Virus record (IMG/VR): IMGVR_UViG_3300029305_011675
Direction: 5' to 3' (one strand)
DNA: 64,000 nt
Origin: a virus
Taxonomy: Duplodnaviria > Heunggongvirae > Uroviricota > Caudoviricetes
This document shows, one piece after another, positions 10,338 to 55,874 of the stretch (positions are counted from its first letter, which is position 1; every line of letters starts with the position of its first letter). The notes under the pieces were generated by a model. It saw only the letters and a program-made list of their open reading frames with translations, was not told the DNA's origin and did not search any database. Made by a program: the position numbers and the translations under genes.

Positions 10338-10661
10338 CACCTTAACTTATTACTGCGAATTTTAAGTTAAATACAAACAAAAATATGGAGTCCGCAATAT
10401 CGGACTCTAAACCAAATATAAAAAAGAAGCCCGCTACTGCGAATAGCGGACTTCCGTATAACAACACTAAAATTAACATTTGTATGACTACCAATCTAAC
10501 AAAAGTGTTTTTTAATGCTGCTTTCTTATTATAGCATTTTCTTATCTAAATGTCAACTCATTTTTGTTAGAAATTCAGTATTCTTATACTTTTGTTAATT
10601 TTGACTAATCTCGTTCCTGCTCGGAACACAAAAATATTAAAATATGATAGGAGTAGATATT

Positions 10662-12812: not shown

Positions 12813-12825
12813 GGAGGTATTCGAT

Positions 12826-14433: not shown

Positions 14434-14448
14434 TAGGAGGAATAAAGT

Positions 14449-34673: not shown

Positions 34674-34690
34674 GAAAGGGTCGAAAAATT

Positions 34691-36049: not shown

Positions 36050-36167
36050 TACTTTCTACACAACGGTTCTTTAAAAGAACCGTTGTTTTTTTCTATCATA
36101 ATCTTGACATTAGGATGGAAATGTTATACTATATACAAATAAGAGACTTATAGGAGAGGTGAAATAA

Positions 36168-38280: not shown

Positions 38281-38318
38281 AAACTTCTGCACAAATTTTG
38301 TGCAGAAGTTTCTTTTTC
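38281..38318. terminator. Bidirectional terminator
   Basis: aaacttctgcacaaattttgtgcagaagtttcttttt. Confidence 0.8.
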
Positions 38319-39081
38319 AATATTCAAATTTAGGGATAGGTCTTTCCTTAAAAAGATTCTTGCGGTGTTTTTCATCGATAAGTTCTTTCACCTTAACATC
38401 TTCGCACTTACCAGTACGAATGTATTTATCCAATACTGCATAAGTGAAACCGAGATTATCTTCGTCGGTCTTACCACACAAGTCATCCGTAGGAACTCTG
38501 TCTACAAGATGCTTTGGAAGCAGATGTGCAAGTTCGTAACCAATCTGTTTTAGTTCCGTAACAGTAAAACTCTTCAAAGGGGCAAAATCACCGACGCTAT
38601 CGCCCCATCTTGTAGAATAACCCACCCAATCTTCAGAAAGATTACAGGTGTTTACTACGCGACCATTACAGGACTGGGATACCGCATAAAGAGTAGACAT
38701 ACGAATTCTCGGAGCGAGATTGATGGCAGTCTGTTCACTCACATCCTTATTCATTGCATTCTCAATGCAGTGAATAAGAGAACAATACGGTGCATTGATA
38801 GGTACGGTATAGCATACAATACCAAGACTCTTAACAACATCGTTTACCGCATTCATAGTCTGATTAAGTGCATCCTCGGTTACTTGAACCGTATTTGGCA
38901 TCGTAACACCAATCACCCTATCTTTACCCAATGCTTCTACACACAAGGCGGCGGCGATGGAACTATCCTTACCACCAGAAATACCAATAATGGCATTACA
39001 ACCCTTTCCGTTCTCTTCGAACCACTGACGAATCCACTCAACAATATCATTTTTAACCTTCAAAGCATTAAATTTTTCCAT
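38317..39081 (-). CDS. nadE: NH3-dependent NAD+ synthetase
   Basis: IIGISGGKDSS is the SGGxDS PP-loop. 254 aa, typical for NadE. Confidence 0.85.
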   Translation of the reverse strand: MEKFNALKVKNDIVEWIRQWFEENGKGCNAIIGISGGKDSSIAAALCVEALGKDRVIGVTMPNTVQVTEDALNQTMNAVNDVVKSLGIVCYTVPINAPYCSLIHCIENAMNKDVSEQTAINLAPRIRMSTLYAVSQSCNGRVVNTCNLSEDWVGYSTRWGDSVGDFAPLKSFTVTELKQIGYELAHLLPKHLVDRVPTDDLCGKTDEDNLGFTYAVLDKYIRTGKCEDVKVKELIDEKHRKNLFKERPIPKFEY

Positions 39082-39140
39082 ATAGTTACCTCTTTCCTTA
39101 TTTTATGTAGGTGCTCCCAGATTAACTGGGAGCATTTTTG

Positions 39141-40937
39141 TTAGAAATTGCCATTATTCAAACGAGCACGAATTTCTGCAAGAGAATATTCCTTAACCAT
39201 CACACCATCTTCGAAAATGGTTTCAAGCATATTATCTGCATATTCTTCGCTTTCCATGTCTTCGAAAGTTAAGCAATCCTTGTAAAGAATATCGCCACTT
39301 TCGTCTTCGTAAACATAGCACATTCCCTTCTGGGACTTTTTGAAGTTATTGCCAGCAGAATGGTCGGTCTTGGGGTCCTTGTAAATCTGGGTTTCCTTGC
39401 CATCGATGATAGCATTGGTTGCCTTCAATGCCTGACCGAGAGAGTCACGAGTTACACACTGATAGGTATAAGAACCAATACCAAGAGTTACACAAGTAAC
39501 TGCATACTGCTTATCCATCAATCTCTGATAGATTTCAACTGCTCGCTCATAGGTGATAGCATCACCATAGATAGCACCGATATGCTCATCAAGAACCTTA
39601 AATCCCTTTGCATTGATATAACCACCGAAAATTTCAAACAGAATTTCAACCGTTCCCTTCATTTCGGGAGTAATATAGGTTTTCTTATAATCAACGAATT
39701 CAACAGTTTCACCGTAGCATCCGCCTTCACCGTCATCGGTTTCGGCAATCCATTCGTGTTCGCAAGTAACCTCATAAAGATAATCGCCAATACGAACACG
39801 ATACCAAGTTTCAGAAGTACCATTCCAAGGATATTCGTCTTCTGCCTTCTTCTTAAAGTATGCCTTAATACCGTCTTCGGTAAGACCATCGACTACCATA
39901 TAGTCTTTTGCCTTCAAAGTACCGCAGATAATATCGACAGGGTCGCCAGAGTCGCCACGAATAATAATCTTGCCGTTACGATTCATAATGCTTGCCTTAA
40001 GACGAGGCAAATAGTTGGTGAGCACATTCCAATAATCATAGGTGTCAGATACCATGCTTAAAGGACCAGCAGGAAATACATCTTCAATCAAGTGACGGTA
40101 ACATTCAAACTCGCCCTCACGACCATAAGAGCTCATAACGCTGTGTTCGGTAGAAGGACAACCACGACCAACGACTTCCTTGGTACAATCACAGTTATAG
40201 TACTCTTCCAACCAAGGAATTGCACTAATGGTTGCGGTGTTCACGAAAGAAAGCAGGTGAGCAGCAGAACTCTTGGCAGCACCTTCGATACTGGTCATGC
40301 CTCTCATGGAGAAATCACCACAAGCAGTATTTTCCTTATCATTAAGGCAATCTGCATTCATTGCAGTTTTCATATCGCCATCGACACGAGCAACAGCAGT
40401 CTTGGAAACACTCTTCTCAAATGCATCATTGACAACCTTACGGTATCTCCAAGCAACAGTAGCAGAGTTGATAGGATGCCAAACATTAACAGAGAGATAG
40501 GTTTCCAGATAATTTACAAGCCAACCATAACCAGCAACGGTGTTCTTGAACTCATAAATAGGAGTACGGATGTTTGCAACAGTGCCTTCGGGAAGTGCCT
40601 TAATACGAATAGGCAGATACCCCAAAGAATGCAATGCTTCGAGAATTGTAGTGTCTGCTGCCTGAACACTCATAGTATTCGCAATATAGCGGATGTACTC
40701 TTCCTTAATCTCTTCGATAGGACGCTTAAAGAAATGCTCATTAAAGTACTCAATGAGATACTTCTTTGCAGTACCCTGCAGACCGAAAACAACTGCCTTA
40801 TTGCAATCTTCATATCTGCTCTTTCGAGGTGTCCAGTAACTTACCAGATATTCCAACTTGGGAACATAGGCAAGGTGATGGATGGTCTTATAAAAATCGG
40901 TTAACAACATGGGAATAAGTCTTTCAAATTTACTCAT
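39141..40937 (-). CDS. Nicotinamide phosphoribosyltransferase (NAMPT/NadV-like) with a ~100-aa insertion
   Basis: LTDFYKTIHH corresponds to TDSYKVTHY, IKALPEG to IKAVPEG, DFSMRGMTS to DFGYRGVSS, MVSDTYDYW to VVSDSYD and IIRGDSGDPVD to IIRPDSGNPLD. RBS aaaggag. Confidence 0.8.
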   Translation of the reverse strand: MSKFERLIPMLLTDFYKTIHHLAYVPKLEYLVSYWTPRKSRYEDCNKAVVFGLQGTAKKYLIEYFNEHFFKRPIEEIKEEYIRYIANTMSVQAADTTILEALHSLGYLPIRIKALPEGTVANIRTPIYEFKNTVAGYGWLVNYLETYLSVNVWHPINSATVAWRYRKVVNDAFEKSVSKTAVARVDGDMKTAMNADCLNDKENTACGDFSMRGMTSIEGAAKSSAAHLLSFVNTATISAIPWLEEYYNCDCTKEVVGRGCPSTEHSVMSSYGREGEFECYRHLIEDVFPAGPLSMVSDTYDYWNVLTNYLPRLKASIMNRNGKIIIRGDSGDPVDIICGTLKAKDYMVVDGLTEDGIKAYFKKKAEDEYPWNGTSETWYRVRIGDYLYEVTCEHEWIAETDDGEGGCYGETVEFVDYKKTYITPEMKGTVEILFEIFGGYINAKGFKVLDEHIGAIYGDAITYERAVEIYQRLMDKQYAVTCVTLGIGSYTYQCVTRDSLGQALKATNAIIDGKETQIYKDPKTDHSAGNNFKKSQKGMCYVYEDESGDILYKDCLTFEDMESEEYADNMLETIFEDGVMVKEYSLAEIRARLNNGNF

Positions 40938-41003
40938 AACAATATCTCCTTTTATTTTGGTTTTGTGATATTTTTTACTTAATATCACTTTGATGTTAAG
41001 TAG

Positions 41004-41032
41004 ATTATAGCACAAGATTTTCGATTTGTCAA
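41004..41032 (-). promoter_or_regulatory. Sigma-A promoter, copy 1 of a duplicated ~50-bp promoter region (40986-41036)
   Basis: The reverse complement reads ttgacaaatcgaaaatcttgtgctataat. The second copy is at 46372-46420, upstream of the NADAR-nicotinamidase operon. Confidence 0.7.
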
Positions 41033-41095
41033 GACCTTTTCGATAAAAAAATAAAAAAAAGATGCGATTCTTTTTTAGAACCGCATCATAGTAGA

Positions 41096-41413
41096 TTATT
41101 TTTTGGGAATATCCGCTTCCGCAACCTCTGTTACACTATAAACATCCCAGAACTTCCAATTGTGTTCGAGAGCAATTTCATAGTATTTATTTTCATCTGT
41201 GTCGCAATAATATTTACTAAATTGCTCACCCCTGCATACAAACTCCTTATCGCCAACAACCGCTTGATGTTGAAAAAATACAGGAACAAACATAATTAAA
41301 ATTCCAATTACAAGTGTTAAAGCAGCGAACTGCAACCAATTTAGTTTGCTAAATAGAACAAACCCCGCAAGAATAAGGGTAATTACAATAAATGCAACTA
41401 TGAGAGAAATCAT
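41096..41413 (-). CDS. Membrane protein, hypothetical
   Basis: 105 aa with two TM helices. Confidence 0.5.
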   Translation of the reverse strand: MISLIVAFIVITLILAGFVLFSKLNWLQFAALTLVIGILIMFVPVFFQHQAVVGDKEFVCRGEQFSKYYCDTDENKYYEIALEHNWKFWDVYSVTEVAEADIPKK

Positions 41414-41558
41414 TTCTTCTAACCTCCATATATTTTATAATATAATTATATCACAAAAACTCGGCAATGTCAACTATGCAAATATTTTTTGATAAAAATT
41501 TTCGTATATATTATAATGAATCTGTTAGAAAATTTATATATTCGAAGGAGGATATGTT

Positions 41559-41723
41559 ATGAACAATTTTGCACAGACTAGAAGAGGAGCAAAATTCTTT
41601 GATTGCGATTTCCCTGCAATGGTAAAGGCTGCAAATCGCCTTGCTGAAGCAATCGAAGAATCCAATCGCCTCAAAAAAGAAGAGTTGGAAATGCAAAAAC
41701 AAAAAGACACAAAGCAAGACTAA
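41559..41723 (+). CDS. Small ORF (54 aa) absent from the ORF track
   Basis: RBS gaaggagg 6 nt upstream of the ATG. Translates MNNFAQTRRGAKFFDCDFPAMVKAANRLAEAIEESNRLKKEELEMQKQKDTKQD. A terminator follows directly. Confidence 0.45.
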   Translation: MNNFAQTRRGAKFFDCDFPAMVKAANRLAEAIEESNRLKKEELEMQKQKDTKQD

Positions 41724-41726
41724 TTA

Positions 41727-41756
41727 GAAAACCCGCTTCGGCGGGTTTTTCTATTT
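41727..41756 (+). terminator. Rho-independent terminator
   Basis: aaaacccgcttcggcgggttttt. Confidence 0.8.
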
Positions 41757-41811
41757 GCTTTTTTCATTTCTTTCATATATAATTAAGAAATAACTCAATA
41801 GGAGGGTGTTT

Positions 41812-42522
41812 ATGGGAAATATTTTAGTTTTAGGTGATTGTTTGGAAAATATGAAAAAGATGCAGTCTAAAACAGTCGATTGTGTCATAACGGATATTCC
41901 ATATTTTCAAGTTGTTGATGACGATTGGGATAATCAATGGAAAAATAGCGAAGAATATTTGGAATTTATACATAATTGCATTAAAGAATTCGATAGAATT
42001 ACGAAAGATGATGCTTCAATTATTATGTTTACAGGAAGACAATACAACCGTCACATTGCATTGCTTTTAGATAAATATTTTGAAGAAAGAAGAATAATTA
42101 TCTGGAGCAGAAAAAGAGCATTTAATAATACTCGTGGCAAAGCACTTGCTTCTGGTTATGAACCAATTTGCTATTACACAAAGGGCAATCCTGTTTTTAA
42201 CAACATAAAAATCCAATCCGAATCCAAAAGAAAAGAGTACACAGAGGGAACACTGAAAGATGGTGTCTCTCTTTCGGATGTGTGGAGCGATATCCCAGCA
42301 TTACCGCATAACTCAAAAGAAAAAGTAAAACACTCGTCCCAAAAACCAATTGCTTTAATGGAAAGATGTGTTTTACTTTGCAGTAAAGAAAATGATACGG
42401 TTTTAGACCCTTTTATGGGTAGTGGTTCTACTGGTGTTGCTTGTAAAAACTTAAATAGAACATTTATTGGCATTGAAGCAAACAAAGAACATTTTGAGTT
42501 AGCAAAACACAGAATCCACTAA
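41812..42522 (+). CDS. Orphan beta-class N6A/N4C DNA methyltransferase
   Basis: Motif IV CVITDIPYF, then motif I LDPFMGSGSTGVAC. RBS aggagggtg. Confidence 0.8.
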   Translation: MGNILVLGDCLENMKKMQSKTVDCVITDIPYFQVVDDDWDNQWKNSEEYLEFIHNCIKEFDRITKDDASIIMFTGRQYNRHIALLLDKYFEERRIIIWSRKRAFNNTRGKALASGYEPICYYTKGNPVFNNIKIQSESKRKEYTEGTLKDGVSLSDVWSDIPALPHNSKEKVKHSSQKPIALMERCVLLCSKENDTVLDPFMGSGSTGVACKNLNRTFIGIEANKEHFELAKHRIH

Positions 42523-42995
42523 AAACTATCTATTATTCGCTTCATGTTAAAACCAATAACAATACCAGAAACAACAAGAAAAACAAAAGTTATAAACAAT
42601 ATAAAAACCGAATTATTGCTATAATCGGCAGCGAGAAGGACATCATATGTTCCTCTTGTTGCCGTATTTTTTTCGAAAAAATTCATTATCAGACCCAACA
42701 ACGAATTCATAAAAGTAGAAATCGTAAATGCACAACAAAAAATTTGAACATATAGTTGTTTTATAAACACCAAAATACAAGATATGGTTAGCGGAACAAA
42801 AATACTACTTAATGCAACGAGAGGAATGTATTTTACATCAACATAACCAGACACAAAACTTTCTGTGCCAAAACCTCCATCAACAAAATTGCCATTGCAA
42901 ATATTCAAAAACAAGAAGTGCGAACCCTCGTGAATAAAAAGATTTAACACTAATCCTGAAACTAAACAAAATATACTAATTAAGACTTTTTTCAC
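42519..42995 (-). CDS. Membrane protein with HExxH (putative zincin-like metalloprotease, DUF3267-like)
   Basis: LFIHEGSHFLF lies within the hydrophobic segments. Confidence 0.4.
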   Translation of the reverse strand: MKKVLISIFCLVSGLVLNLFIHEGSHFLFLNICNGNFVDGGFGTESFVSGYVDVKYIPLVALSSIFVPLTISCILVFIKQLYVQIFCCAFTISTFMNSLLGLIMNFFEKNTATRGTYDVLLAADYSNNSVFILFITFVFLVVSGIVIGFNMKRIIDSF

Positions 42996-43113
42996 ATTTT
43001 ATACCTCCTCTTTTAAAACAATTATATCAAAAAACAAACACTTTGTCAATCTAAAATGTTGACAACGGTCTCTCAATATGTTATAATAAAGAAAAAAACA
43101 GGAGGAAAGCACT

Positions 43114-43548
43114 GTGAAATTTAGAACAGGTTTTGTAACAAATAGTTCCAGTTCGTCTTTTGTAATCGCATACAAAAAAGAAGATTATTCCGAAGAAGAA
43201 CTGAAAAAATATCCAATTCTTAAAATGTATGACCATATTGTAGACCACATTGCAACCATTAAAGGCGAAGACTGGTACGATTCGGAGGGTCGAGTTTTCC
43301 GAACCATTGAAGAACTCAATGAACATTATGCTAATTCTTGGTGGAATGAAGACGATGTTGAAAACTTCAACCCAGAAACTCTTCCACCTTATGAACTCGA
43401 AGAATATCAAATGATTAAGAAAGCACTTGAAGAAGGAAAACATGTTGTTGTGAAAGATGTAAAATATCACGACGAAGTTGCCAATGAATTTATCCAAGAG
43501 ATTCTCAAAGACCATCACTTTGAACTTCTCAAAGAATGCGAAGGATAA
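43114..43548 (+). CDS. Hypothetical protein; GTG start
   Basis: RBS aggagg. 144 aa, acidic. Confidence 0.5.
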   Translation: MKFRTGFVTNSSSSSFVIAYKKEDYSEEELKKYPILKMYDHIVDHIATIKGEDWYDSEGRVFRTIEELNEHYANSWWNEDDVENFNPETLPPYELEEYQMIKKALEEGKHVVVKDVKYHDEVANEFIQEILKDHHFELLKECEG

Positions 43549-43660
43549 TGATATTATTCACAATCTCAAACAATGCCATTGGATTAATACATTGTGTGGG
43601 CAAAAAAATTCATCATTCACTTTGTTATATAATATATTTTAAAATAATGGAGGTGTTATT

Positions 43661-43930
43661 GTGAAAGAAAAAGAGATTTTTATCATAGAGCATTTATTTG
43701 ACTTGCAAGGTTGCGGTCGTGTTGAATTTGGAGTAGAAGAAATCGGTTATTTTGAAAACGAAGACGATGCGAAATCATATGTAGAAAAGTATTCCTGTTG
43801 CAAAGTATATGATAAGACAATGCGATATGGAAAGTTGAGATATAGACGAGAAAGTATCCCCACAAAACTAACTCTCAACACCCCACCTGATTTCAAGGGG
43901 ATGGGTTTTAAAGAACAAAAAGAAGGTTGA
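43661..43930 (+). CDS. Hypothetical protein; GTG start
   Basis: RBS ggagg. A terminator follows at 43921-43952. Confidence 0.45.
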   Translation: MKEKEIFIIEHLFDLQGCGRVEFGVEEIGYFENEDDAKSYVEKYSCCKVYDKTMRYGKLRYRRESIPTKLTLNTPPDFKGMGFKEQKEG

Positions 43931-43961
43931 TTTTCATCAACCTTCTTTTTCTATGCCCAAA

Positions 43962-44801
43962 TTACAAATCGACTTTAGTAATTAACGGATGTTCTTCTGT
44001 AAAAATACTATTAGTTGTATAGATATTTTCGACCAAATCAGACTTAATCAAGTCGCCAGTGAGAATTGTGTTTTCGCAATGAGTGATGTAAAGACCGATA
44101 TTGGTCGCCCCACACTCTCGGAGTGCCTTTGCAGAATAATAGAATGTTCCACCCTTGGAACAGATATCATCGACAATAAGAACTCTCTTGCCATCAAGTA
44201 ACTCTTTTCCGACAACCTCAAGACCAAGGATTTTAGCAGTGCTCCAATCACGGTTTTTATTTGCATAAGCAACAGGATAAGCATGCTTATTTTTCGTACT
44301 TCTGCCGTGCATTGCTTTGCCGTTGATGATATCTGCATATCTCTTACAACTTCCTTCATCGGGGAAGAAAATCACATCAGGATTATACATCTCAATAGCA
44401 TTATTGATATATTTACCAACATCAAGTTGCACAACACGGTCAATAAGTGCCAAAGAAACACTGGAATGTGCATCAAGAACAAAAACTTTTTCAAAGTTCA
44501 TCATGTTGATTAACTGGCAGAAATACTTTAAAGTAAAAACTTCAGATATTTCCTTCGTTCTATCCATTCTTGCATTAGGAATATAATACATATATAGATA
44601 AAACTTTGCATCTCTCGGAGCATGCTCTCTCAAATGCATTACAACATTAAAAAGAAGCATAGTTTCGTCGTTATTTTCATAATACCATTCAAATGCAAAT
44701 TCGTTTTCGTTTACGATTTCAGCAAAAAATTCATTCTTAATTGCCATGGTGCCATCTGGGAATCTACCCATTTCAACAATATTTTCATTAAGTTTAATCA
44801 T
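43962..44801 (-). CDS. Divergent ribose-phosphate pyrophosphokinase (Prs)-like phosphoribosyltransferase-fold protein
   Basis: RFPDGT corresponds to Prs FsDGE, VIFFPDEGSCKRYA is also Prs-like, and VLIVDDICSKGGT is the PRPP-binding loop. The canonical Prs N-terminal motif is absent. RBS aaggagtg. Confidence 0.6.
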   Translation of the reverse strand: MIKLNENIVEMGRFPDGTMAIKNEFFAEIVNENEFAFEWYYENNDETMLLFNVVMHLREHAPRDAKFYLYMYYIPNARMDRTKEISEVFTLKYFCQLINMMNFEKVFVLDAHSSVSLALIDRVVQLDVGKYINNAIEMYNPDVIFFPDEGSCKRYADIINGKAMHGRSTKNKHAYPVAYANKNRDWSTAKILGLEVVGKELLDGKRVLIVDDICSKGGTFYYSAKALRECGATNIGLYITHCENTILTGDLIKSDLVENIYTTNSIFTEEHPLITKVDL

Positions 44802-44802
44802 C

Positions 44803-45027
44803 TTAATCGCACTCCTTATCAAAGTTTTCTTCGAAAAATTGTGTCATCAAATTAGTCTTAAACTCTTCAATAACACAACGAATATGGTCTGTGTCAGCAG
44901 AACAACTAATGTCTCCCTGTTGCTTATATACATATTCCTTTCCCCTAAACACAAGGACAAAAGTATATGTCTCCCAGTCAACAGACTTGCAAAGGACATC
45001 TTTATATTCCAGATTATAACTATCCAT
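44803..45027 (-). CDS. Small hypothetical protein
   Basis: 74 aa. Ends 2 nt before the Prs-like start. Confidence 0.4.
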   Translation of the reverse strand: MDSYNLEYKDVLCKSVDWETYTFVLVFRGKEYVYKQQGDISCSADTDHIRCVIEEFKTNLMTQFFEENFDKECD

Positions 45028-45032
45028 TTTCT

Positions 45033-45362
45033 TTACCTCGCAACAGTTGTATTTTTCAAAAAATCACGAAATACATTTTCGAATTTTTCTGCAGTTTGAA
45101 ACAAAAACTTAATTGCTTCGTCATATCCTTCCTTACAATTTATATATGTTTCGGTAGCGATTGGAAACCCATTATGGGTACACCAAGCAACATATATTTT
45201 AGACTGACCATTTATGAATATTAAATTTTCGTTTCTCATTTCAAACAATAGGTATAGGTTTTCTGTCATGTGAACTTTGAATTCCAACCCCTTATATTCC
45301 CTATTATTATTCATTGAACAAAATTGGTCATAAGAAGGGATTGTGATTTTTAAATTATTCAC
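45033..45362 (-). CDS. Hypothetical protein
   Basis: 109 aa. Tightly packed within the operon. Confidence 0.45.
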   Translation of the reverse strand: MNNLKITIPSYDQFCSMNNNREYKGLEFKVHMTENLYLLFEMRNENLIFINGQSKIYVAWCTHNGFPIATETYINCKEGYDEAIKFLFQTAEKFENVFRDFLKNTTVAR

Positions 45363-46344
45363 AGTTAGCCACCTTAACCTGACAGGATTTCATAGTTTCG
45401 ATTGCTGCATTATGCTTTTCAGGAGTTACACCCGCACAACAGTTTTCATAAACCACAACCTCTACCTCTGGCAGAAATGCTTTAACAAGCATAACATTGG
45501 ATACAACACAGATGTCAGTGCAAACACCGACAAACTTAACAACCAACTTCTTACCAATTGCAGCGAGTTCCTTCTCTTTCGTTACCAAATAGTTTGCGAG
45601 TTCAACACTACCAAAAGTAGGTTTCTTAATGCAAATGGCATTAGCGACATAAGGACGAAGTTCATCTACAATTTCCCATCCCTTTTCACCATCAAAACAG
45701 TGAGGAACAGGAAGATTACGACCTTCCTGACTATCCATATAGGTGTCTGCATAGTGAGTATCGTAAGTGAAGATAACTTTGCCACCATTTGCACGATGCT
45801 CTTTAATGCACTTTGCGACAGTAGGAATAACATTCTTCGTTTCCTCGTTACCAAGGACACCTTTGGTGAAGTCATTTTGCATATCGACAACAACAAGAAT
45901 TTCTTCTGCATTGTCAACGATTTCTTTTCTCACCTTACAAAGCAGATAACCGAGAGTATTCTTGCCCTTAATATTTGCACATTTAAAACAAGAACAATCG
46001 CCCCAATAATTATCGTGCCAAGCGTTGCCTTCAACCAACCACTCATTACCAGTGTGAATAAGGCGCTCCCTCAATTCGGGAATAGCGAACTTTGCACGAA
46101 GACAGGTAAGCATAACCTCATCTTTAACATTCTCCCAGTCAGCACGAAGTTTTACAGAACGACCTGCTCGTTTAGCAAGAGAAGGAGTTGTAAGGTTAGC
46201 AATATTTTGTCTCTCGTTTACATCAAGAGTTTTTGCTGCTTGGAAGGCATGTTCCACAGTAGGATAAACAATGCCCTCAAACTCAATCTTACTCTCATAG
46301 AAATTGCTCAAAAAATCATATAAACCGTCAAACTTTTCAATCAT
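45355..46344 (-). CDS. NADAR (YbiA/DUF1768) domain fused to a nicotinamidase/isochorismatase-family (PncA-like) domain
   Basis: The N-terminus FLSNFYESKIEFEGIVYPTVEHAFQAAK is the NADAR signature. The C-terminus has ILVVVDMQNDF and the catalytic Cys in GVCTDICV. Starts at the second ATG (RBS aaaggag). Confidence 0.75.
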   Translation of the reverse strand: MIEKFDGLYDFLSNFYESKIEFEGIVYPTVEHAFQAAKTLDVNERQNIANLTTPSLAKRAGRSVKLRADWENVKDEVMLTCLRAKFAIPELRERLIHTGNEWLVEGNAWHDNYWGDCSCFKCANIKGKNTLGYLLCKVRKEIVDNAEEILVVVDMQNDFTKGVLGNEETKNVIPTVAKCIKEHRANGGKVIFTYDTHYADTYMDSQEGRNLPVPHCFDGEKGWEIVDELRPYVANAICIKKPTFGSVELANYLVTKEKELAAIGKKLVVKFVGVCTDICVVSNVMLVKAFLPEVEVVVYENCCAGVTPEKHNAAIETMKSCQVKVANCE

Positions 46345-46388
46345 AATGTACATCTCCTTTTACTTATTATCATTTTGATGTTAAGTAG

Positions 46389-46417
46389 ATTATAGCACAA
46401 GTTTTTTGATTTGTCAA
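46389..46417 (-). promoter_or_regulatory. Sigma-A promoter, copy 2 of the duplicated promoter region (46372-46420)
   Basis: The reverse complement reads ttgacaaatcaaaaaacttgtgctataat, near-identical to 40986-41036. Confidence 0.7.
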
Positions 46418-46539
46418 GAGTTTTAAGACAAAAAATAAAAATTATTTTCAATTTGATATTAAGTCCATTTTTGTGTTGACATTAGCACTTGTTTATGATA
46501 TAATATATGTAGAAATATAACCACAAAGGAGAATATATT

Positions 46540-47067
46540 ATGTCAAAGATTGAGATTAACAGAGTTTGGTGTATGCCGAACAAAAATACATTCGATATTA
46601 AACCAGTAAAAGAACTTATTGAAAAATATATTGGGAAACTACCCCCAAACCCAACCATTGTAGACCCTTTTGCCAACAAAAATAAAATTGCAACCATTAC
46701 AAATGATTTAGACCCTCAATACGGAACAGATTATAATATGGATGCAACTGACTTTTTAAAAATTTTGGACGACAATTGTGCAGACATGATACTATACGAC
46801 GCACCGTACAGCCCTCGCCAAGTATCAGAAGTATACAAAAAATTTAATATGAGTGTAAATATGGAAACTACACAAGCTTCTTATTGGTCGAAACAAAAAG
46901 AACAAATTAGTCGCCTTGTAAAAAAAGGAGGGTATGTAATAACTTGTTCTTGGAATAGTGGTGGTATTGGTAAAAAATATGGTTTCGAAATCGTGGAAAT
47001 TTTGATGGTGCCTCACGGCGGTTGGCACAATGACACAATTATTACAGTAGAAAGGAAGATTAAGTAA
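46540..47067 (+). CDS. Small putative adenine-specific methyltransferase-like protein
   Basis: Motif-I-like IVDPFANKNKIA is followed by motif-IV-like ILYDAPYSP. 175 aa. Tentative. Confidence 0.35.
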   Translation: MSKIEINRVWCMPNKNTFDIKPVKELIEKYIGKLPPNPTIVDPFANKNKIATITNDLDPQYGTDYNMDATDFLKILDDNCADMILYDAPYSPRQVSEVYKKFNMSVNMETTQASYWSKQKEQISRLVKKGGYVITCSWNSGGIGKKYGFEIVEILMVPHGGWHNDTIITVERKIK

Positions 47068-47872: not shown

Positions 47873-48307
47873 TTATTCGAGTGCATCTGGGATTCCATCA
47901 CCATCGGTATCTCCGCAAATATGGTCAACATCGTCAGCACTTACCATGCCAGAACCAACCATTTCACGACCCGCCACTCCACGTTCTCTTCTACGCTTTT
48001 CAACTAATTCGCTAATAAAGTGATGGACATCTTTCGGTTTTTTAATATTTTTAAGTTCCAATACTCTATCTGTTTGGTCTGCAGAATACAATGTAACTGT
48101 TCCTACTCCAAAAATTTTCTGCCAAAAAGTTCTTTTTGTTTTGATATCCAAAATTCTGTATAAAAGAATTTCGTCAGAATTTGTTGTGAAGAAACCCTTA
48201 TCTAAATAAAGTCTCTCTTCGTCAACTGCATACTTTGTAAAAGAAATTGGCATCCCCATGTGTCTCTTTCTGTCTTTCCATAAAATTGATTTTTCACATT
48301 TGCTCAT
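47873..48307 (-). CDS. Bacterial PH (bPH_2/YdbT-like) domain protein
   Basis: DEILLYRILDIKTKRTFWQKIFGVGTV fits the bPH_2 pattern. Overlaps the 3' end of the C5-MTase gene by 14 nt. Confidence 0.45.
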   Translation of the reverse strand: MSKCEKSILWKDRKRHMGMPISFTKYAVDEERLYLDKGFFTTNSDEILLYRILDIKTKRTFWQKIFGVGTVTLYSADQTDRVLELKNIKKPKDVHHFISELVEKRRRERGVAGREMVGSGMVSADDVDHICGDTDGDGIPDALE

Positions 48308-49502
48308 TATTATCTGCTCCTTTTAATTTTATTTTTAGCAATTGTTCTGCTATATAAACAATGACATCAACATTGGCACTGTTACCAAGTTGCTTATATG
48401 CCATGTGTTCATTTTTGTTTAATATGTAATTTTCTGGGAAAGATTGCAATCTTGCCGCTTCTCTTGGAGTAATTCTCCTCAAATATTTTCCGACAATAGA
48501 TGTTTGCACTATGGCAACGAGAGCAGGAAAAGTGCTTGTTCTTTTACACCTTATTCCCGATTGTCTCAATTGTATAAGTGTTTCATAAACACTATCTGCG
48601 GTGTCTCCCGCTTGCCATTCAAGTTTCCTATCTCTCTTTTTGAATTTATTAACTTCAAAAAGTTGCATCCAAGCGTCTAAATATTCTTTGTTGTTTAAAT
48701 AAAATTCTCTATTTTTTTGACAATAGTCCTGTTTCCACTTTGGCAAATTTGTATAATCATAATCTTGACCAAATTCGTCAATCAAAATTGGTGAGATTAC
48801 TTTTTTATTATGCTTCCTAAAGTGTTTAATTAAAGCATCCCATGCTCTTAATACATCTCCTTCATATTCACTTATTGCATATTCGGAATAATTATCTATA
48901 TGTCTGTCCAAAACGGAAAATACACTTGTGCTAGGATAATTTTCTTTATTTGGAACATCGATTTCGATATATTCTCCTTCATAATAATCTCGATGAATAC
49001 CAACAATAAAAATACGTTCTCTATTTTGTGGTACTCCTATATGATGAGGAGAAACGATTAGTGGGTCTTTTGTTAAAACATAACCAAGGTCACTTAAATG
49101 CTCTTTAATTACCCTAAATGTATTTCCATCATCGTGATTTACAAGGTGCTTTACGTTTTCTAAAATAATATACTTTGTTTTGTGATATTTTAAAATTCTT
49201 TCAATCTCAAAAAACAAAGTTCCTCTTGTATCAACAAAACCCTTCTTATGTCCAGCATTTGAAAATGGCTGACAAGGAAAACCTGCACACAAAATATCAT
49301 GTTTGGGAATATCTTCTGCTTTCACATCGAATATGTTGCAGTCAGAACTCATGTTGAAATTTTCTTCATAAGTTTCGATTGCATATTTATCTATTTCTGA
49401 TGCAAAAACACATTTGCCTCCAAGTTTTTCAAGTGCTAAATGAAAAGCGCCAATACCAGCAAACAGGTCGATAAAAGTAAAAGAATTATTCAATTTTATC
49501 AC
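48294..49502 (-). CDS. dcm: DNA (cytosine-5)-methyltransferase
   Basis: Motif I is FIDLFAGIGAF, motif IV CAGFPCQPFS and motif VI ENV. Confidence 0.9.
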   Translation of the reverse strand: MIKLNNSFTFIDLFAGIGAFHLALEKLGGKCVFASEIDKYAIETYEENFNMSSDCNIFDVKAEDIPKHDILCAGFPCQPFSNAGHKKGFVDTRGTLFFEIERILKYHKTKYIILENVKHLVNHDDGNTFRVIKEHLSDLGYVLTKDPLIVSPHHIGVPQNRERIFIVGIHRDYYEGEYIEIDVPNKENYPSTSVFSVLDRHIDNYSEYAISEYEGDVLRAWDALIKHFRKHNKKVISPILIDEFGQDYDYTNLPKWKQDYCQKNREFYLNNKEYLDAWMQLFEVNKFKKRDRKLEWQAGDTADSVYETLIQLRQSGIRCKRTSTFPALVAIVQTSIVGKYLRRITPREAARLQSFPENYILNKNEHMAYKQLGNSANVDVIVYIAEQLLKIKLKGADNNEQM

Positions 49503-49602: not shown

Positions 49603-52395
49603 TTATTCAAATGAAAATTCGCTAAAATCCATTCCCATACATTCAGTCCAAAAATCATACGACGTTCCGTGATATGTTTGTACAAGGAAGAATAAATTAA
49701 ACCAACTTCCTGTATCTTCTGATGTTTGCCCAGTTTCAGATGACACAGATTCAATCATGGTAGTTCTTGCTTCTTCTGCGAAGTTTTTAACAATTTTCAT
49801 AATCCATTTTGGCATTCTCGAATATTCAACTTTTATATCAAATTTAATATCGAGATATTCATTGTCTGGTATCTGATTATCTCCAACAATAACATCCATC
49901 ATATATTGTGTTAGTTTTTCAGAAATTTGAGCATCAGTCATTGTTTGTTCAAGACTGTTATCTTCTTCGTAAATAAGAATTGGACTTCCAAATAAACTTC
50001 CAATTGGAGACCATACGATTAAGAAATCTTTTTCTACTGTATCATCCTTAAATGCATGACCCTCAACAGACATATTTTGAATTTGCTTTGTTGGCATTTC
50101 ACCAATACCAAGTTCTCCAAAAATATCGCCAATAACAATCAATTGTTCATCTGTATACCCAAGTTTTCTTGCTGCTTTTTCGACATTACTTCTTACATCG
50201 AGGAAATTAGACCAGTCATCGTATCCGTAAAACATAGACTGATACCAAATCTTTGCTACATCCTCATTTGTAAAACCTCTTTGAGTCATTCTAAATGCGG
50301 CACGACTCAATAATATACCGTTAATGTGGCAATCATCGTTGCTCCAATTTTCTCCGAGATAAGTATCTGGATATTTTGTGCCCCAAAGTTCATTACCAGA
50401 AGCACCAGTTGCATCTCTTAATGGTTCTCCCAACCATTCAGCCATTTGCCAATCATTATCAATTAGGCACCCAAAAATATCGGCATATGCCTCATTGATG
50501 GAAGAAAAATTCATTGAACTACCGTCCGCCGTAATCGCATCGAAAACACCGTGAGTATACTCGTGTCCAATTACATCCACACCTGCACAAAGTGCATACT
50601 TAAATGCTGGTGCATCTCCACAGATGAAAAATCTAAAATCTCCGCCAAGATATGAGGCATTATTTTTAGCAGCAGGAGAATTTACAACACATTTTATTTC
50701 TTTACCTTTTCCATCAAAAGAAGTTCTTCCAAGAGTATCTTTATACCAGTCATATGTCGTGATAAAATTCTTATATGCAGAAACACCCTGACCAGCATCT
50801 TTGAAAGTGTTTTTTGTACTCGAAATTGGTAAACCAAACTGCTTTTTTAAAACGACTATCATCATTGGTGCATCATCACCCCAAAAGATTTCATCACCGA
50901 TATCAGTAATATTGTGTGAACCATCAATGATTTTGATATTTCTTCCCGTATCTTCAAGGAAATACAAAGCCGCTTTATTTGCTTTAAACACTTGGTCTTC
51001 ACCGAACACATCCTCGCCATAAGCGGTTGTCATAGACCCCAAACCAGTCGAAATTTCAACATCTGCTACTACTTTTTTGGAGTCAATGTCTAAATAAACA
51101 GTTTTGATAACAATTTTATCATTTTCTTGTCCTAAAGCAGTACACTTATATACAAGATGTGCTTTTTCTTCTGACACGAAAATACCTTTTGTGTGTTCTG
51201 TGATTTTGATTGTAATGCCATAATGAGAAGACAATACAGAATTAATTTCATCTTCGGTCATTTCACCGTTAGTGCCGACATTGATATTTCTAACAATATT
51301 TAAGTTAATTGAATCCAAATGATTAGAAGCGTTAGTTGTCATTGTAACAGTTCTACCAAAGACAGGCAAATCGTTGTAGTATTGTTCAACCATAAAACAT
51401 TTACCTTCTAGTGCCGTCTGAACATCACAAACTTTAAATTCTACTTCATCACCTATATTCATAAGTTGTCTATACTTATTAAGTACTTTTATAGCATCAT
51501 CAGCAGAAGAAACGATTGTAGAATTGAAATTACCATCAATACTATCGATAATATCATCCTCGTTGTAAGTGATAACCATATTGTTGTTTCCGATGCCTTT
51601 TTCAATATCTTCGGGTGTTAACACAAAGATATCTTCATCATCAATTACGTCTGTCTTTATAACGGTAATATAATAATCTTTTTTACCAGTTCCTAAACCG
51701 TGTTTTACTTCTGCCGTTAATTTAACAACAGCATTTGCATTACTCGGTCTATTTACCTCTCCTATTGTATTAAGCACATTAGGATTATCACTTGACCATT
51801 GGATTTTTTCCACATCGCCCTCGCCGACTTCAATTTCTTGCGGAATTACAATGTTGTCAGTTACATAATCACAATAGTTTGTATCGACATATTCAAAAGG
51901 TTGGTCGCTCAAAATATTTTGTAGATATTCTGTTGCTACATTATTTTGCCACTTAAATAAACCAAAGATACCTGCACCAATTAAGATTAAAGATAAGAAA
52001 ATCCATAAACCAATGTGCTTTTTCTTTTTCTTTCCTTTAACCTTTTTATCCTTCTTTGTCTTTTTAGGTTGTTCAGGCGTCATAGGAGGAGTTTGTGGTG
52101 TTGGCGGTACTGGTGGTACTGGTGGAATAGGAATTTGTGTGGGCGGTTGCAGCGGTGCGATAGGTTGTTGTTGCATATACTGCGGATTATTGTATTGCCC
52201 ATAAACCCCACCATTTTGTGTTGGTTGAGTTGGAGGATTTGGATTTCGATATCCATTATTTTGTCCACCAATTACAAATTGAGGATTTGTGTTTTGTGTA
52301 TTTTGCATAGGGACATTATTCATGTTTTGTGGCATAGGTCTTCCCTGATAATTATTATCAGTCGGAATCCCGTTACCAAATTGATTGTTGTCCAT
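49603..52395 (-). CDS. Membrane-anchored M4 (thermolysin-like) zinc metallopeptidase with a Pro/Gln/Asn-rich N-terminal tail
   Basis: VIGHEYTHGVFD is the HExxH motif, followed by INEAYADIFG (the third zinc-ligand Glu). One TM helix. RBS aaaaggag. Confidence 0.8.
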   Translation of the reverse strand: MDNNQFGNGIPTDNNYQGRPMPQNMNNVPMQNTQNTNPQFVIGGQNNGYRNPNPPTQPTQNGGVYGQYNNPQYMQQQPIAPLQPPTQIPIPPVPPVPPTPQTPPMTPEQPKKTKKDKKVKGKKKKKHIGLWIFLSLILIGAGIFGLFKWQNNVATEYLQNILSDQPFEYVDTNYCDYVTDNIVIPQEIEVGEGDVEKIQWSSDNPNVLNTIGEVNRPSNANAVVKLTAEVKHGLGTGKKDYYITVIKTDVIDDEDIFVLTPEDIEKGIGNNNMVITYNEDDIIDSIDGNFNSTIVSSADDAIKVLNKYRQLMNIGDEVEFKVCDVQTALEGKCFMVEQYYNDLPVFGRTVTMTTNASNHLDSINLNIVRNINVGTNGEMTEDEINSVLSSHYGITIKITEHTKGIFVSEEKAHLVYKCTALGQENDKIVIKTVYLDIDSKKVVADVEISTGLGSMTTAYGEDVFGEDQVFKANKAALYFLEDTGRNIKIIDGSHNITDIGDEIFWGDDAPMMIVVLKKQFGLPISSTKNTFKDAGQGVSAYKNFITTYDWYKDTLGRTSFDGKGKEIKCVVNSPAAKNNASYLGGDFRFFICGDAPAFKYALCAGVDVIGHEYTHGVFDAITADGSSMNFSSINEAYADIFGCLIDNDWQMAEWLGEPLRDATGASGNELWGTKYPDTYLGENWSNDDCHINGILLSRAAFRMTQRGFTNEDVAKIWYQSMFYGYDDWSNFLDVRSNVEKAARKLGYTDEQLIVIGDIFGELGIGEMPTKQIQNMSVEGHAFKDDTVEKDFLIVWSPIGSLFGSPILIYEEDNSLEQTMTDAQISEKLTQYMMDVIVGDNQIPDNEYLDIKFDIKVEYSRMPKWIMKIVKNFAEEARTTMIESVSSETGQTSEDTGSWFNLFFLVQTYHGTSYDFWTECMGMDFSEFSFE

Positions 52396-52560
52396 AACGA
52401 TATCTCCTTTTTTATGTAATTTCATATATTATACAATATTTTTGCAACTTTGTCAACAAAATAGAAACTGAACAAATATTAGAAAAAGTTGCATTATTTT
52501 TTGATTTTTTATGTAAACCGATATATTATATAATAAAATATTCCTTTTGGTGGTGTTTTT

Positions 52561-53883: not shown

Positions 53884-53922
53884 AGGAGTTGAACATATTC
53901 GTTCAACTCCTTTTTTATTTTA
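53884..53922. terminator. Bidirectional terminator
   Basis: aaggagttgaacatattcgttcaactcctt + ttttttattt. Confidence 0.8.
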
Positions 53923-54277
53923 ACGAATGGATATCTCGTCTAACAACCTCACCTGTACTATCCATAACCCACGAATACAATTGTGCAGTTACAACATCGC
54001 CCTTTTCGACACCCCAATGTTGCGGAGCGAACATGCCTCCGCCTTCGGAAGTTATCGTTTTTTCTAATCCATACTCTTCGCTTTTAACGGTTATCTCAAT
54101 GATGTAATGATGTGTCGTAGCAAACCAATGTTTCCTGTTGACATTGGTAACAACAACATCAATATCTTTCCAGTACAAATGTGGTTGTTCTGGCCGTTCC
54201 ACGGGTTCTAAATCACACCCAACAAGAGAAAAGACAATCAATACTCCGAGCAGAATGCAAACAAACCGTTTAATCAT
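53915..54277 (-). CDS. Lipoprotein, hypothetical
   Basis: Starts at MIKRFVCILLGVLIVFSLVGC (lipobox). Last gene of the Nudix operon. Confidence 0.55.
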   Translation of the reverse strand: MIKRFVCILLGVLIVFSLVGCDLEPVERPEQPHLYWKDIDVVVTNVNRKHWFATTHHYIIEITVKSEEYGLEKTITSEGGGMFAPQHWGVEKGDVVTAQLYSWVMDSTGEVVRRDIHSLK

Positions 54278-54986
54278 CGAGTTTCTTCTTTCGATAAACT
54301 TTTGCAGGACGATATGCCATACCATAGACAGTCTTATCGGTTTCTTCAATACGACTGTCCATAGTGCGCTTAAAGTTACTGATAGGTTTATTTAAAATGG
54401 TCTCAAAAGTTCCCTGTAAAGAACCAACAGTAAACTCCTCTTCTTCAAACTCGAAACCGATATCAGAATAAAACAACTTACCACGAACTCTTTCAAGCGC
54501 CTTTGTGATAATTTTCCCGTGGTCAAAAGCAAGGTCGTCAAAAGTTAAAGTACGAAGTGTATCAATACCAATCAAGGTGTTATCATCAAGAATCTCAAAC
54601 CACTCACCAGCATGAGTTCCATACTGCTTTGTAAAAGTATGAGGTTTCATAATTCCAACATATGCCGTAGAAATAACACGCCAACGACTATCACGGTCAA
54701 TACCATCGAAGGTGTAAAGTTGCTCAAGGTAATACTGGTCATAGCCAGTCTTTTCAAAAACCTTTCTGCGAGCAACTTCCTCAATAGTTTCGTCAATGCC
54801 GACGAAACCACCAGGAAGAGACCACTTACCCTCATAAGGTTCTGTATCTCTTCGAATCAAGAGAACACGAAGACTTTTCTTGCTCTTCTGTCTTTTGTCA
54901 ATGATTTTATCGTGAACCTTAAACATAACGACGTCTGCCGTTACCGAAGGTCTCTCATAACTCATAAAATTTTTATTATCGCTCAT
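54270..54986 (-). CDS. NUDIX hydrolase (ADP-ribose pyrophosphatase-like) with a C-terminal extension
   Basis: The Nudix box is GKWSLPGGFVGIDETIEEVARRKVFEKTG. Confidence 0.8.
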   Translation of the reverse strand: MSDNKNFMSYERPSVTADVVMFKVHDKIIDKRQKSKKSLRVLLIRRDTEPYEGKWSLPGGFVGIDETIEEVARRKVFEKTGYDQYYLEQLYTFDGIDRDSRWRVISTAYVGIMKPHTFTKQYGTHAGEWFEILDDNTLIGIDTLRTLTFDDLAFDHGKIITKALERVRGKLFYSDIGFEFEEEEFTVGSLQGTFETILNKPISNFKRTMDSRIEETDKTVYGMAYRPAKVYRKKKLDD

Positions 54987-54996
54987 TTTTCTTACC

Positions 54997-55431
54997 TCAC
55001 TTTTGGACTATTTCTGCCAATCTTCCTTCTTTTTCTGGCAGAATTCCTTTTCTCAAATCATCAAGTGTAATTACATGACTGCATCCATTCATCATCATCA
55101 AAGAATAATCGCAATCATCCCCGCAACAAACTTGGTAAACCTTTTTGCCTTTTCCAAAGGCATATCCTGCTTCCCAAGCAGTTCCGCTGTCGGAATACAT
55201 TCCGAAATTAAGCACAAATACATATTCACTTTCGCAAAGTGCTTTTCTATCAAGCGCGAAGACCTTTTCTGCCCAAACATGGTTTTCGATTTCTGTGCCG
55301 TTTTCTATTTCGTGTTCCATTGGAACATATACTTCTGTGTCCTTCAATGCCCGCAAAAGTTCGATTACTTCTTTATAGACAACCAATTCTTTTTCAGAGA
55401 AAAAAGGACTTGCTAAATACACTTTTCTCAT
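54997..55431 (-). CDS. Nucleoside 2-deoxyribosyltransferase-like protein
   Basis: VYLASPFF is followed by SDSGTAWEAGYAFGKGKKV. Confidence 0.7.
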   Translation of the reverse strand: MRKVYLASPFFSEKELVVYKEVIELLRALKDTEVYVPMEHEIENGTEIENHVWAEKVFALDRKALCESEYVFVLNFGMYSDSGTAWEAGYAFGKGKKVYQVCCGDDCDYSLMMMNGCSHVITLDDLRKGILPEKEGRLAEIVQK

Positions 55432-55760
55432 AGTGTTTCACCACTATCTTCGAAAACAACAGAGGATTTCGCCTGTTCTTCGGTTACTGTAATAATTTCT
55501 CCTTTGATGTTATAAATAACATAAGAACCTACAGGCGGATACATACGACAGGCAGAATTCGGTTTTACATAACCAATCTTTTCTTGGTCACCGCAAATAC
55601 CATTGCAAGAGCAATATCCGCTGTTTTGATATTCACAATCGCAATTTCGACCACGCTTGCACATCACATCAAAACCATCGTAATCTTCCTCGCTATTGAT
55701 TCTGAATGCCTTTGCTGGCATAATGACCTTACAGTTTACACTTTTTCTATTTTCAAACAT
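55428..55760 (-). CDS. Cys-rich hypothetical protein
   Basis: 110 aa with 10 Cys. First gene of the operon, driven by the promoter at ~55790-55820. Confidence 0.45.
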   Translation of the reverse strand: MFENRKSVNCKVIMPAKAFRINSEEDYDGFDVMCKRGRNCDCEYQNSGYCSCNGICGDQEKIGYVKPNSACRMYPPVGSYVIYNIKGEIITVTEEQAKSSVVFEDSGETL

Positions 55761-55874
55761 ATTATAACAATCCTTTCCTGTTTTATTGTACTTACATTAT
55801 ATCATATTGATATTAAGTTGTCAACCCCTTTTTGCAAAAATAACACCACTTTTTTCAGAAGTGGTGTTATGTAT

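Follow-up and report, generated by a model that had tools for sequence, protein, structure and literature searches.

A duplicated promoter cassette with a candidate NrtR-type operator heads two NAD units of a large, probably phage-like element

We analysed a 64,000-nt stretch of viral DNA (IMG/VR record IMGVR_UViG_3300029305_011675, Caudoviricetes; the window, meaning the whole stretch) in which two minus-strand transcription units of nicotinamide adenine dinucleotide (NAD) metabolism begin with near-identical promoter sequences. Read along the minus strand and delimited by a terminator scan, unit 1 extends from a promoter at 41032-41004 through a 598-amino-acid (aa) gene (39141..40937; Pfam NAPRTase/NAMPT_N; ribosome-binding site (RBS) GGAG at 40949-40946) and the co-transcribed gene for NAD synthase, NadE (38317..39081; Pfam), to a terminator at 38311-38281. 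Unit 2 extends from a promoter at 46417-46389 to a terminator at 43950-43917. Its first gene is a NADAR-isochorismatase (nicotinamidase-like) fusion (45355..46344; Pfam) of 329 aa when read from the second ATG, which is the length of the gene call in contigs L027/L028. Two small open reading frames (ORFs) follow at 44803..45362, one of 109 aa (45362..45033) and one of 74 aa (45027..44803), the latter also kept in L036. The last gene encodes a 279-aa Adps-like homologue of phosphoribosyl pyrophosphate (PRPP) synthetase (43962..44801; Pfam). Unrelated genes on both strands, encoding membrane proteins and an N4/N6 methylase, lie between the two units.

The first gene of unit 1 had originally been labelled NAMPT, and the label holds at the level of the family, but the protein resembles phage Namat more closely than it does true NAMPT. 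Its best solved relative is the SpbetaL1 Namat (9W5X/9W5W, E 1.8e-128; 433 bits against 9W5X), whereas true NAMPTs reach about 1e-50 and ~170-190 bits. In SpbetaL1 Namat, R40, F392, and Y396 form the clamp that makes the enzyme selective towards ADPR-PP, the pyrophosphate of ADP-ribose (PMC12774641). The residues at these positions in the window protein are R, Y, and C, respectively, and it has a ~75-aa insertion (residues ~353-425) relative to SpbetaL1 Namat. The Prs-like protein of unit 2 is distant from true PRPP synthetases (1e-8), and homologues of its gene adjoin Namat-like genes in Bacillus phages and Phage Phass-1; in the window the two genes are 3 kb apart in separate units. Because of the match to Namat and this adjacency in phages, the two units look like halves of a split NARP1-like NAD-reconstitution module (Adps plus Namat), extended by the NADAR-nicotinamidase and NadE. 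A protein search of IMG/VR with the NADAR-PncA fusion returned NADAR-domain relatives only.

Nicotinamidase genes were repeatedly co-encoded with Prs-like and Namat/NAMPT-like genes, in the window (45355-46344), in Phage Phass-1 (L128, 7459-10561), and in L042/L043. The enzyme destroys nicotinamide, the Namat substrate, and in the window it is fused to NADAR, with NadE encoded downstream of Namat. This company hints at a deamidated route, from nicotinate through nicotinate adenine dinucleotide (NaAD) to NAD, or else at another role of these enzymes.

The sequences preceding the two units form an ungapped direct repeat of 84 nt with 87% identity (40973-41056 versus 46358-46441, aligned as reverse complements). 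The original prediction had placed both sequences correctly and described near-identity across the -35, spacer, and -10 elements; the similarity proved to be even longer. Both copies act on the minus strand, 5' of genes starting at 40937 and 46344, and each has a perfect TTGACA-17-TGnTATAAT promoter with a palindrome of 25 bp behind it. In copy 1 (40973..41056), the cassette of the Namat-like/NadE unit, repeat and promoter scans placed the -35 TTGACA at 41032-41027, the TG at 41012-41011, and the -10 TATAAT at 41009-41004, followed by the palindrome and an AAAA tail. In copy 2 (46358..46441), the cassette of the operon running from the NADAR-nicotinamidase to the Adps-like gene, the -35 lies at 46417-46412 and the -10 at 46394-46389. 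Both copies score 12/12 hexamer matches plus the TG of an extended -10 (sigma-70/sigma-A type), and both have an RBS and a gene downstream. Identity between the copies is 17/24 in the A/T-rich upstream stretch, 6/6 in the -35, 15/17 in the spacer, 6/6 in the -10, 2/2 in the next two nucleotides, 23/25 in the palindrome, and 4/4 in the AAAA tail. The RBS follows the tail at once in site 2 and after ~24 additional leader bases in site 1. The leader of site 1 also contains a second inverted repeat (40961-40984; GTGATATT-N8-AATATCAC; -7.6 kcal/mol as RNA), the 5' arm of which is shared with the right arm of the palindrome. It is missing from site 2 and is therefore not part of the shared element.

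The repeat pair stands out among the promoters of the window. We extracted 26 consensus promoters and compared them pairwise with the hexamers left out: the pair was an outlier at 68% identity, where the mean was 36% (sd 6%, z 5.8). A 44-nt degenerate pattern spanning both copies had two matches in the window, with 0.00 expected. What sets the pair apart is its spacer variant and, above all, the sequence past the -10. The original statement that other promoters share only the -35 and -10 was too strong, as the main promoter family (gTTGACATTG...TGaTATAATaa) also matches in the spacer, at up to 15/17 positions, and the palindrome part recurs at 46440-46464 and 55794-55818. Exact searches found no match to a 28-mer of the shared promoter in viral contigs and none to a 22-mer in genome contigs; a 19-mer matched two contigs of a related strain (L029, L033) in metagenome contigs, together with three chance matches. 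A megablast search of 39000-47000 against phages gave no match.

The 26 promoters include a very regular, perfect family, gTTGACATTG-N-TrTGrTATAATaa, with short leaders and strong GGAGG sites (for example at 19732, 22027, 23761, 29045, 41473, 46476, and 62992). Some members stand back-to-back, as at 43049(-)/43059(+) and 60028(-)/60053(+), and the window looks like a phage early region.

The palindrome past the -10 reads ACTTAAcATCA-N3-TGATaTTAAGT in both copies (11-3-11, 25 bp), with a 21-bp core of TTAAyATCA-N3-TGATrTTAA. Taking the predicted start 7 nt past the -10, it spans about -4 to +21. A search of the window for this palindrome with at most three mismatches found four sites, S1 to S4, where 0.04 were expected. 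Exact copies of the left arm, ACTTAAYATCA, number five (0.2 expected), and every one of them falls within the four sites. S1 (40977..41001, minus strand; ACTTAACATCAAAGTGATATTAAGT) has one mismatch and a predicted start at A 40997. S2 (46362..46386, minus strand; ACTTAACATCAAAATGATAATAAGT) is its counterpart in copy 2, with a predicted start at A 46382. S3 (46440..46464, minus strand; ACTTAATATCAAATTGAAAATAATT) lies upstream of S2, at a centre-to-centre distance of 78 bp, and is flanked by the divergent promoters 46417(-) and 46476(+). S4 (55818-55794, minus strand; ACTTAATATCAATATGATATAATGT) lies in the promoter (55824-55796) of an operon that encodes an NrtR-family regulator, where it fills the spacer of a perfect promoter and overlaps the -10 hexamer (TTGACA-ACTTAATATCAATATGA-TATAAT).

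We scored these sites with a weight matrix made solely from sites of related elements, no window site being included. S4 (36.5 bits), S1 (33.0 bits), S2 (27.9 bits), and S3 (18.0 bits) were the top four matches in the window, the next real match reaching 10.9 bits and the maximum in simulated sequence 13.9 bits. The weaker S3 may be an auxiliary or a decaying site; it is kept in the related strain L033, and L036 has a comparable upstream site. The scan covered the window and 10 kb of its left flank, ~74 kb or about a third of a genome of at least 215 kb, and there was no operator site in the left flank. The original prediction had named many further copies upstream of unrelated genes as the outcome that would speak for a generic promoter, and no such copies were seen in the window or the 10-kb left flank.

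The regulator gene (54270..54986, minus strand) encodes 238 aa with a Nudix-like domain and a C-terminal NrtR winged-helix domain (Pfam PF00293, 6e-13; PF21906 NrtR_WHD, 8.6e-10, 39.1 bits versus a cut-off of 27). Over both domains the protein matches the solved structures 5BS6 (AraR), 2FML, and 3GZ5 (Shewanella NrtR) with E values of 1e-24 to 5e-21, and the LAFDH and NF(K/R)R motifs are kept in the NrtR alignment. The Nudix signature GX5EX7REUXEEXGU is degenerate in most NrtR members, which are non-catalytic sensors (PMC12735969). Here it reads G-FVGID-E-TIEEVAR-RKVFEKTGY, with RKVFEK in place of REUXEE and two E replaced by K. Characterised NrtR proteins are repressors of NAD genes that are released by ADP-ribose, and their regulons include prs-nadV and pncA-pncB-nadD-nadE (PMC2330246). 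The whole nrtR operon (53915..55760, minus strand) comprises a 110-aa Cys-rich ORF (55760..55428), a nucleoside 2-deoxyribosyltransferase-like gene (55431..54997), nrtR, and a lipoprotein-like ORF (~54274..53915); the same gene set is found in L036 and L041. The palindrome of the two NAD units is thus also present at the promoter of this operon, which implies autoregulation.

NrtR homologues in metagenomes provided a graded identity series, and we scanned their contigs for palindromes and promoters. L045 (86% NrtR identity) and L034 (76%) have a spacer-type site directly 5' of nrtR and a +1-type site 5' of the NADAR-PncA gene, within the same promoter as in the window. In L041 (70%) a spacer-type site lies 5' of the operon of the Cys-rich ORF, the deoxyribosyltransferase-like gene, and nrtR. 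L036 (66%) has three near-identical operator promoters, at the nrtR operon, at an Adps-Namat operon, and at a third operon with a VWA protein, as well as a generic promoter-like site without operator at 5023 for Namat. Altogether, the site at the nrtR operon promoter is also present in L034, L035, L036, L041, and L045. In L037 (50%), the genes nrtR-NADAR/PncA-ORF-Adps and Namat-NadE each stand behind one and the same promoter, TTGACAAATTGCAAAATACATATTATAAT, after which comes a palindrome that has diverged (AGATATAATCA-N3-yGATAATAA); the paralogous promoters are more alike than the orthologous ones, again a duplicated-promoter architecture. In L043 (44%), the nrtR operon and a NAPRT-type gene share another palindrome (ATTGAyArTATCAA) that begins in the -10. 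The diverged palindromes of L037 and L043 thus occur both at the nrtR operon and at the Namat/NAPRT-type unit, just 3' of the -10.

The third operator promoter of L036, with a weaker site 66 bp upstream (11723-11813), precedes an operon (11844-13238) for a repeat-rich 121-aa protein, a 209-aa protein, and the VWA protein; the VWA operon of the window (33870-37841) has no site. This arrangement in L036 implies that the NrtR regulon may extend past NAD genes in some lineages.

Bacterial chromosomes gave an independent indication. Among the NrtR relatives recovered by a profile search of 185,579 species genomes, none exceeded 42% identity, and the closest came from Lachnospiraceae. At many of these loci nrtR is followed by a nicotinamidase gene whose product is 45-52% identical to the PncA domain of the window; one locus has an Adps-like gene (48%) and one has NadE (58%). 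We then applied the element's matrix to 891 kb around Firmicutes nrtR genes, and every match of at least 13 bits lay within ~250 bp upstream of nrtR. The spacer of the L099 nrtR promoter carries TTAATAACAAAGTGATATTA, nearly identical to S1. Lachnospiraceae nrtR-pncA promoters contain two 21-bp palindromes, TAATACTC-N5-GAGTATTA, the first within the spacer and the second just past the -10, and related palindromes stand 5' of chromosomal nrtR genes in Clostridia and Bacilli. These resemblances point to the palindrome as a member of the NrtR operator family.

Taken together, the two repeats are most likely paralogous promoter-operator cassettes in which the palindrome is the operator. We consider it likely, judging from sequence comparison, that the NrtR-type repressor encoded by the element binds the palindromes and co-regulates both NAD units. 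The original prediction of co-regulation through a common operator, possibly of NrtR type, thus gained support from four palindromes, one of them at the nrtR operon, from their conservation and co-divergence in relatives, and from the Firmicutes counterparts. Published NrtR operators are palindromes of ~21 bp with a GT-N7-AC core, situated over promoters or in the stretch from promoter to start codon (PMC2330246). The comparison with known operator consensuses came out mixed: S1, S2, and S4 have the NrtR geometry, as odd-centred palindromes of ~21 bp on the promoter or between promoter and start codon, but the NrtR core is lacking and there is no agreement with NiaR operators.

Several observations weigh against this assignment or restrict it. 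A regular-expression search found the canonical core GT-N7-AC in neither copy; T-N7-A alone is kept (TC-N5-GA; AT-N7-AT). Divergent operator groups have been noted for NrtR (PMC2330246), and the motifs of Streptococcus and Mycobacterium NrtR are likewise deviant (PMC6800001). The right arm of the spacer-type sites coincides with the common extended -10 (TGATATAAT), and their score is partly promoter consensus. The operator does not account for the near-identity of the spacer and upstream DNA, which reflects the common descent of the cassette. The best solved relative of the regulator, Bacteroides AraR (5BS6), is a sensor of arabinose rather than ADP-ribose, and the effector is therefore not readable from homology. 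Finally, with ~74 kb scanned of at least 215 kb, the regulon may be larger.

Among the alternatives, the one that survives best, and which we nevertheless consider unlikely, is that the palindrome serves another protein: a host NrtR or other host factor, or another protein of the element, such as the 110-aa Cys-rich product or a small MarR-like helix-turn-helix protein (~6444-6737). The window does encode a 96-aa winged helix-turn-helix protein, the Cys-rich ORF is conserved 5' of nrtR, and host Firmicutes have NrtR proteins of their own with related AT-rich palindromes. Yet in L034 and L045 the operator directly precedes nrtR with no Cys-rich ORF in between, the closest bacterial NrtR is only 42% identical, and the Lachnospiraceae motif differs from that of the element. 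Moreover, the operator tracks the element's own NrtR, being near-unchanged at NrtR identities of at least 66% and diverged at 50% and 44%.

Still less probable, in our view, is the plain duplication of a strong promoter by recombination when the cluster was split, with the palindrome as a passenger and no dedicated regulator. Such an event could explain why the identity covers spacer and upstream DNA that no operator needs, and it fits both the whole-cassette duplications in L036 and L037 and the abundance of consensus promoters in the genome. A passenger, however, would not be expected to recur without the rest of the cassette and in another promoter context, as the palindrome does at the nrtR operon and at 46440-46464, nor to keep its positions across relatives while the flanks change. 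Similar palindromes 5' of bacterial nrtR genes likewise argue against it.

We hold it very improbable that the shared leader acts as RNA, through a 5' stem-loop that stabilises both mRNAs or is bound by an RNA-binding regulator. A start 1-3 nt past the -10 would give 5' hairpins of -7.0 and -5.2 kcal/mol (z -4.0 and -5.5), and site 1 offers a further hairpin (GUGAUAUU/AAUAUCAC, -7.6 kcal/mol). From the expected start, an A 7 nt past the -10, the site 2 leader nevertheless has no structure beyond chance (z 0.18), and the differences between the copies add mismatches rather than compensatory changes. Spacer-type palindromes lie upstream of any transcript, and being untranscribed they favour recognition at the DNA level. 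An operator that accompanies nrtR and the NAD genes, occupies the spacer or the +1 position, and shifts as NrtR diverges fits a DNA-binding repressor and not an RNA element.

A NiaR (YrxA) or NadR operator, of which the NiaR type had also been proposed originally, can practically be dismissed: although the genes serve niacin/NAD salvage and Clostridia, the likely host group, often have NiaR (PMC2330245), the type I and type II NiaR motifs (TGT-N4-ACA and ACA-N5-TGT; PMC2330245) and TGTTTA-N6-TAAACA were all absent from both strands of both copies by regular-expression search, and no NiaR-like gene was noticed among the annotated ORFs.

Under the preferred reading, control by the element's NrtR, an NrtR dimer (54986..54270) would bind the palindromes and block RNA polymerase at all three promoters. 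If the analogy with characterised NrtR proteins holds, the signal for its release would be ADP-ribose, which NAD cleavage yields, or a closely related derivative; ADP-ribose is also the substrate of Adps. Release would switch on both halves of the pathway together, the Adps-like protein with the NADAR-nicotinamidase and the Namat-like protein with NadE. The ADPR-PP made by Adps would be consumed by Namat. The promoter would have been duplicated because unrelated genes part the two halves, and copying the whole cassette would have kept both under one signal. Since the element enters without repressor, an early burst followed by feedback shut-off would be expected.

A more tentative extension, which we regard as possible but rather doubtful, is that its own ADP-ribose sensor makes the module an inducible NAD-reconstitution counter-defence, perhaps with a deamidated Namat route in which nicotinate and ADPR-PP would give NaAD for NadE. 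The genes would fire at entry, after which NrtR would shut off both them and itself. If host NADase immunity (Thoeris, SIR2, DSR, and similar systems) then cleaved NAD, the released ADP-ribose would switch the genes back on. The steady co-occurrence with nicotinamidase and NadE, together with the nicotinamidase-Prs-NAMPT set of Phage Phass-1, could point to the deamidated Namat route, which, if true, would constitute a new variant of NARP1.

The regulatory mechanism itself is of the known NrtR kind; here it would control a split NARP1-like module. In a full-text literature search pairing NARP1 with NrtR and NrtR with phage, we found no description of a NAD-reconstitution module, in a phage or a mobile element, that is controlled by a regulator of NrtR type. 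NrtR is mentioned in the NARP1 and phage literature as background only, or in predictions of how host ARG systems are regulated. Descriptions of NARP1-3 present them as sets of enzymes, and no dedicated regulator is named in the literature searched. The locus points to at least one lineage of large elements, from Clostridia-type hosts, in which a NARP1-like module would stand under an NrtR-type repressor. The canonical NrtR ligand, ADP-ribose, is both the product of NADase immunity and a substrate of the pathway, and this leads to the hypothesis that anti-defence genes are induced by the immune effector's own product. Regulons in these genomes also seem to grow through the copying of whole promoter-operator cassettes.

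The element that carries the locus is probably a jumbo phage of a Clostridia-type host. The identical Namat-like protein occurs on contigs of up to 0.2-1 Mb, one of them 214,927 bp long. Encoded in the window and its left flank are a split gyrB, a pilin-like protein containing an intein, GIY-YIG/HNH elements, several DNA methylases, a SAM synthetase, and a TnsB/TniB/TniQ set, along with PcfJ-like proteins that have PHROG and Bacillus/Enterococcus phage relatives. A megaplasmid is the less probable alternative; no structural genes were seen in the window or left flank.

In the left flank (L046/L047, 5123-7579), gyrase B is encoded in three pieces (HATPase/GyrB, Toprim, and GyrB_C) that adjoin an N-methyl pilin-like protein with a Hint/intein domain. 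The combination of split gyrB and intein suggests intron/intein invasion typical of large phages. Two paralogous proteins, encoded at 469-1776 and 4521-5519, bear a type IV pilin-like motif (prokaryotic N-terminal methylation), and one of the two also has DUF6273. Their genes share a DNA repeat (487-693 / 4536-4742, 74%), and the relatives L034 and L045 have a third such protein. An intergenic array of ~7.8 degenerate 33-bp units, or alternatively of 65-bp units, occupies 4174-4427 (consensus TTTCTTTTTTGAAGGGGTTTAGGGAGAATAGTT), with a promoter directed leftward (4140-4112) on one side and the pilin-like gene at 4521 on the other; an iteron/origin-like array or a protein-binding array is conceivable. 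A Tn7-like gene set at 10644-16575 comprises a TnsB-like integrase (rve, HTH_TnsB), a TniB-like AAA ATPase, and TniQ fused to helicase-associated domains. Further genes encode a 940-aa thermolysin-like metalloprotease with Ig-like domains (49603-52425), three DNA methyltransferases, one C5 and two N4/N6, and a SAM synthetase (48294-49502, 9387-10337, 41806-42522, and 60120-61175).

The closest known systems are the chromosomal NrtR regulons, such as nrtR-prs-nadV of Shewanella oneidensis and Acinetobacter and nrtR-pncA-pncB-nadD-nadE of Clostridium acetobutylicum (PMC2330246). Like the element, they combine a Nudix-like and winged-helix repressor with a degenerate Nudix box, an odd palindrome of ~21 bp over the promoter or start of NAD salvage genes (prs with a nadV-type gene, pncA, nadE), and an operator at the regulator's own operon. 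In contrast, the genes of the window lie on a probably phage-like element of at least 215 kb rather than on a chromosome, and its operator lacks the G/C of GT-N7-AC. They are also split into two units with a duplicated cassette, the nadV-type gene is Namat-like, and a response to ADP-ribose would follow by analogy.

Lachnospiraceae and other Clostridia have chromosomal nrtR-pncA(-adps/-nadE) clusters (Jutongia, Lactonifactor, and the metagenome-assembled loci L070 and L099) that resemble the element in gene content, with 45-52% identity for PncA, 48% for the Adps-like protein, and 58% for NadE. They also have palindromes at the nrtR promoter in the same two placements as the element, in the spacer and just past the -10. 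However, NrtR identity is only 35-42%, and most of their motifs differ from that of the element (TAATACTC-N5-GAGTATTA). In these clusters no NADAR fusion was detected (matches of the fusion protein span ~170 aa), and no Namat-like gene was found within 6 kb.

NARP1 (Adps plus Namat; Bas63, SpbetaL1; bioRxiv 10.1101/2024.02.11.579819, PMC12774641) shares with the window a Namat-like protein, a diverged Prs-like partner, and a phage-like carrier. Unlike NARP1, the window has the two genes in separate units, joined by the NADAR-nicotinamidase and NadE and placed under an NrtR-type candidate operator.

Full-length NrtR-like proteins are rare in annotated phages (25 records). One is gp273 of the jumbo phage Bacillus phage G (gp273-gp283, NC_023719), which is 34% identical over its full length and annotated as a MutT/NUDIX hydrolase; it heads an NAD salvage cluster of isochorismatase, nicotinate phosphoribosyltransferase, NadD, and NadE. 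Phage G thus has a Preiss-Handler set instead of the Adps/Namat pair of the window. The window NrtR is a full-length match to PHROG 1198, likewise named 'MutT/NUDIX hydrolase', and these phage NrtR-like proteins are probably regulators mis-annotated as hydrolases. Inspection by eye and a palindrome scan found no convincing repeated motif as a shared operator in phage G. A perfect 21-bp palindrome (TAGTATTTATGTTAAATACTA; L039, 10478-10498) covers the start codon of pncB (gp277), downstream of gp273, and is a candidate operator for the phage G NrtR, although no second copy was found.

The promoter-stem-loop (PeSL) cassettes of T4-type phages, reportedly described by Arbiol et al. in 2010, offer a last comparison: whole early-promoter cassettes are said to be repeated in the genome in association with gene shuffling. 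Similarly, whole cassettes have been copied two or three times in the window, L037, and L036. The window differs from that pattern in having two full copies only, which serve one functional module and carry a specific candidate operator.

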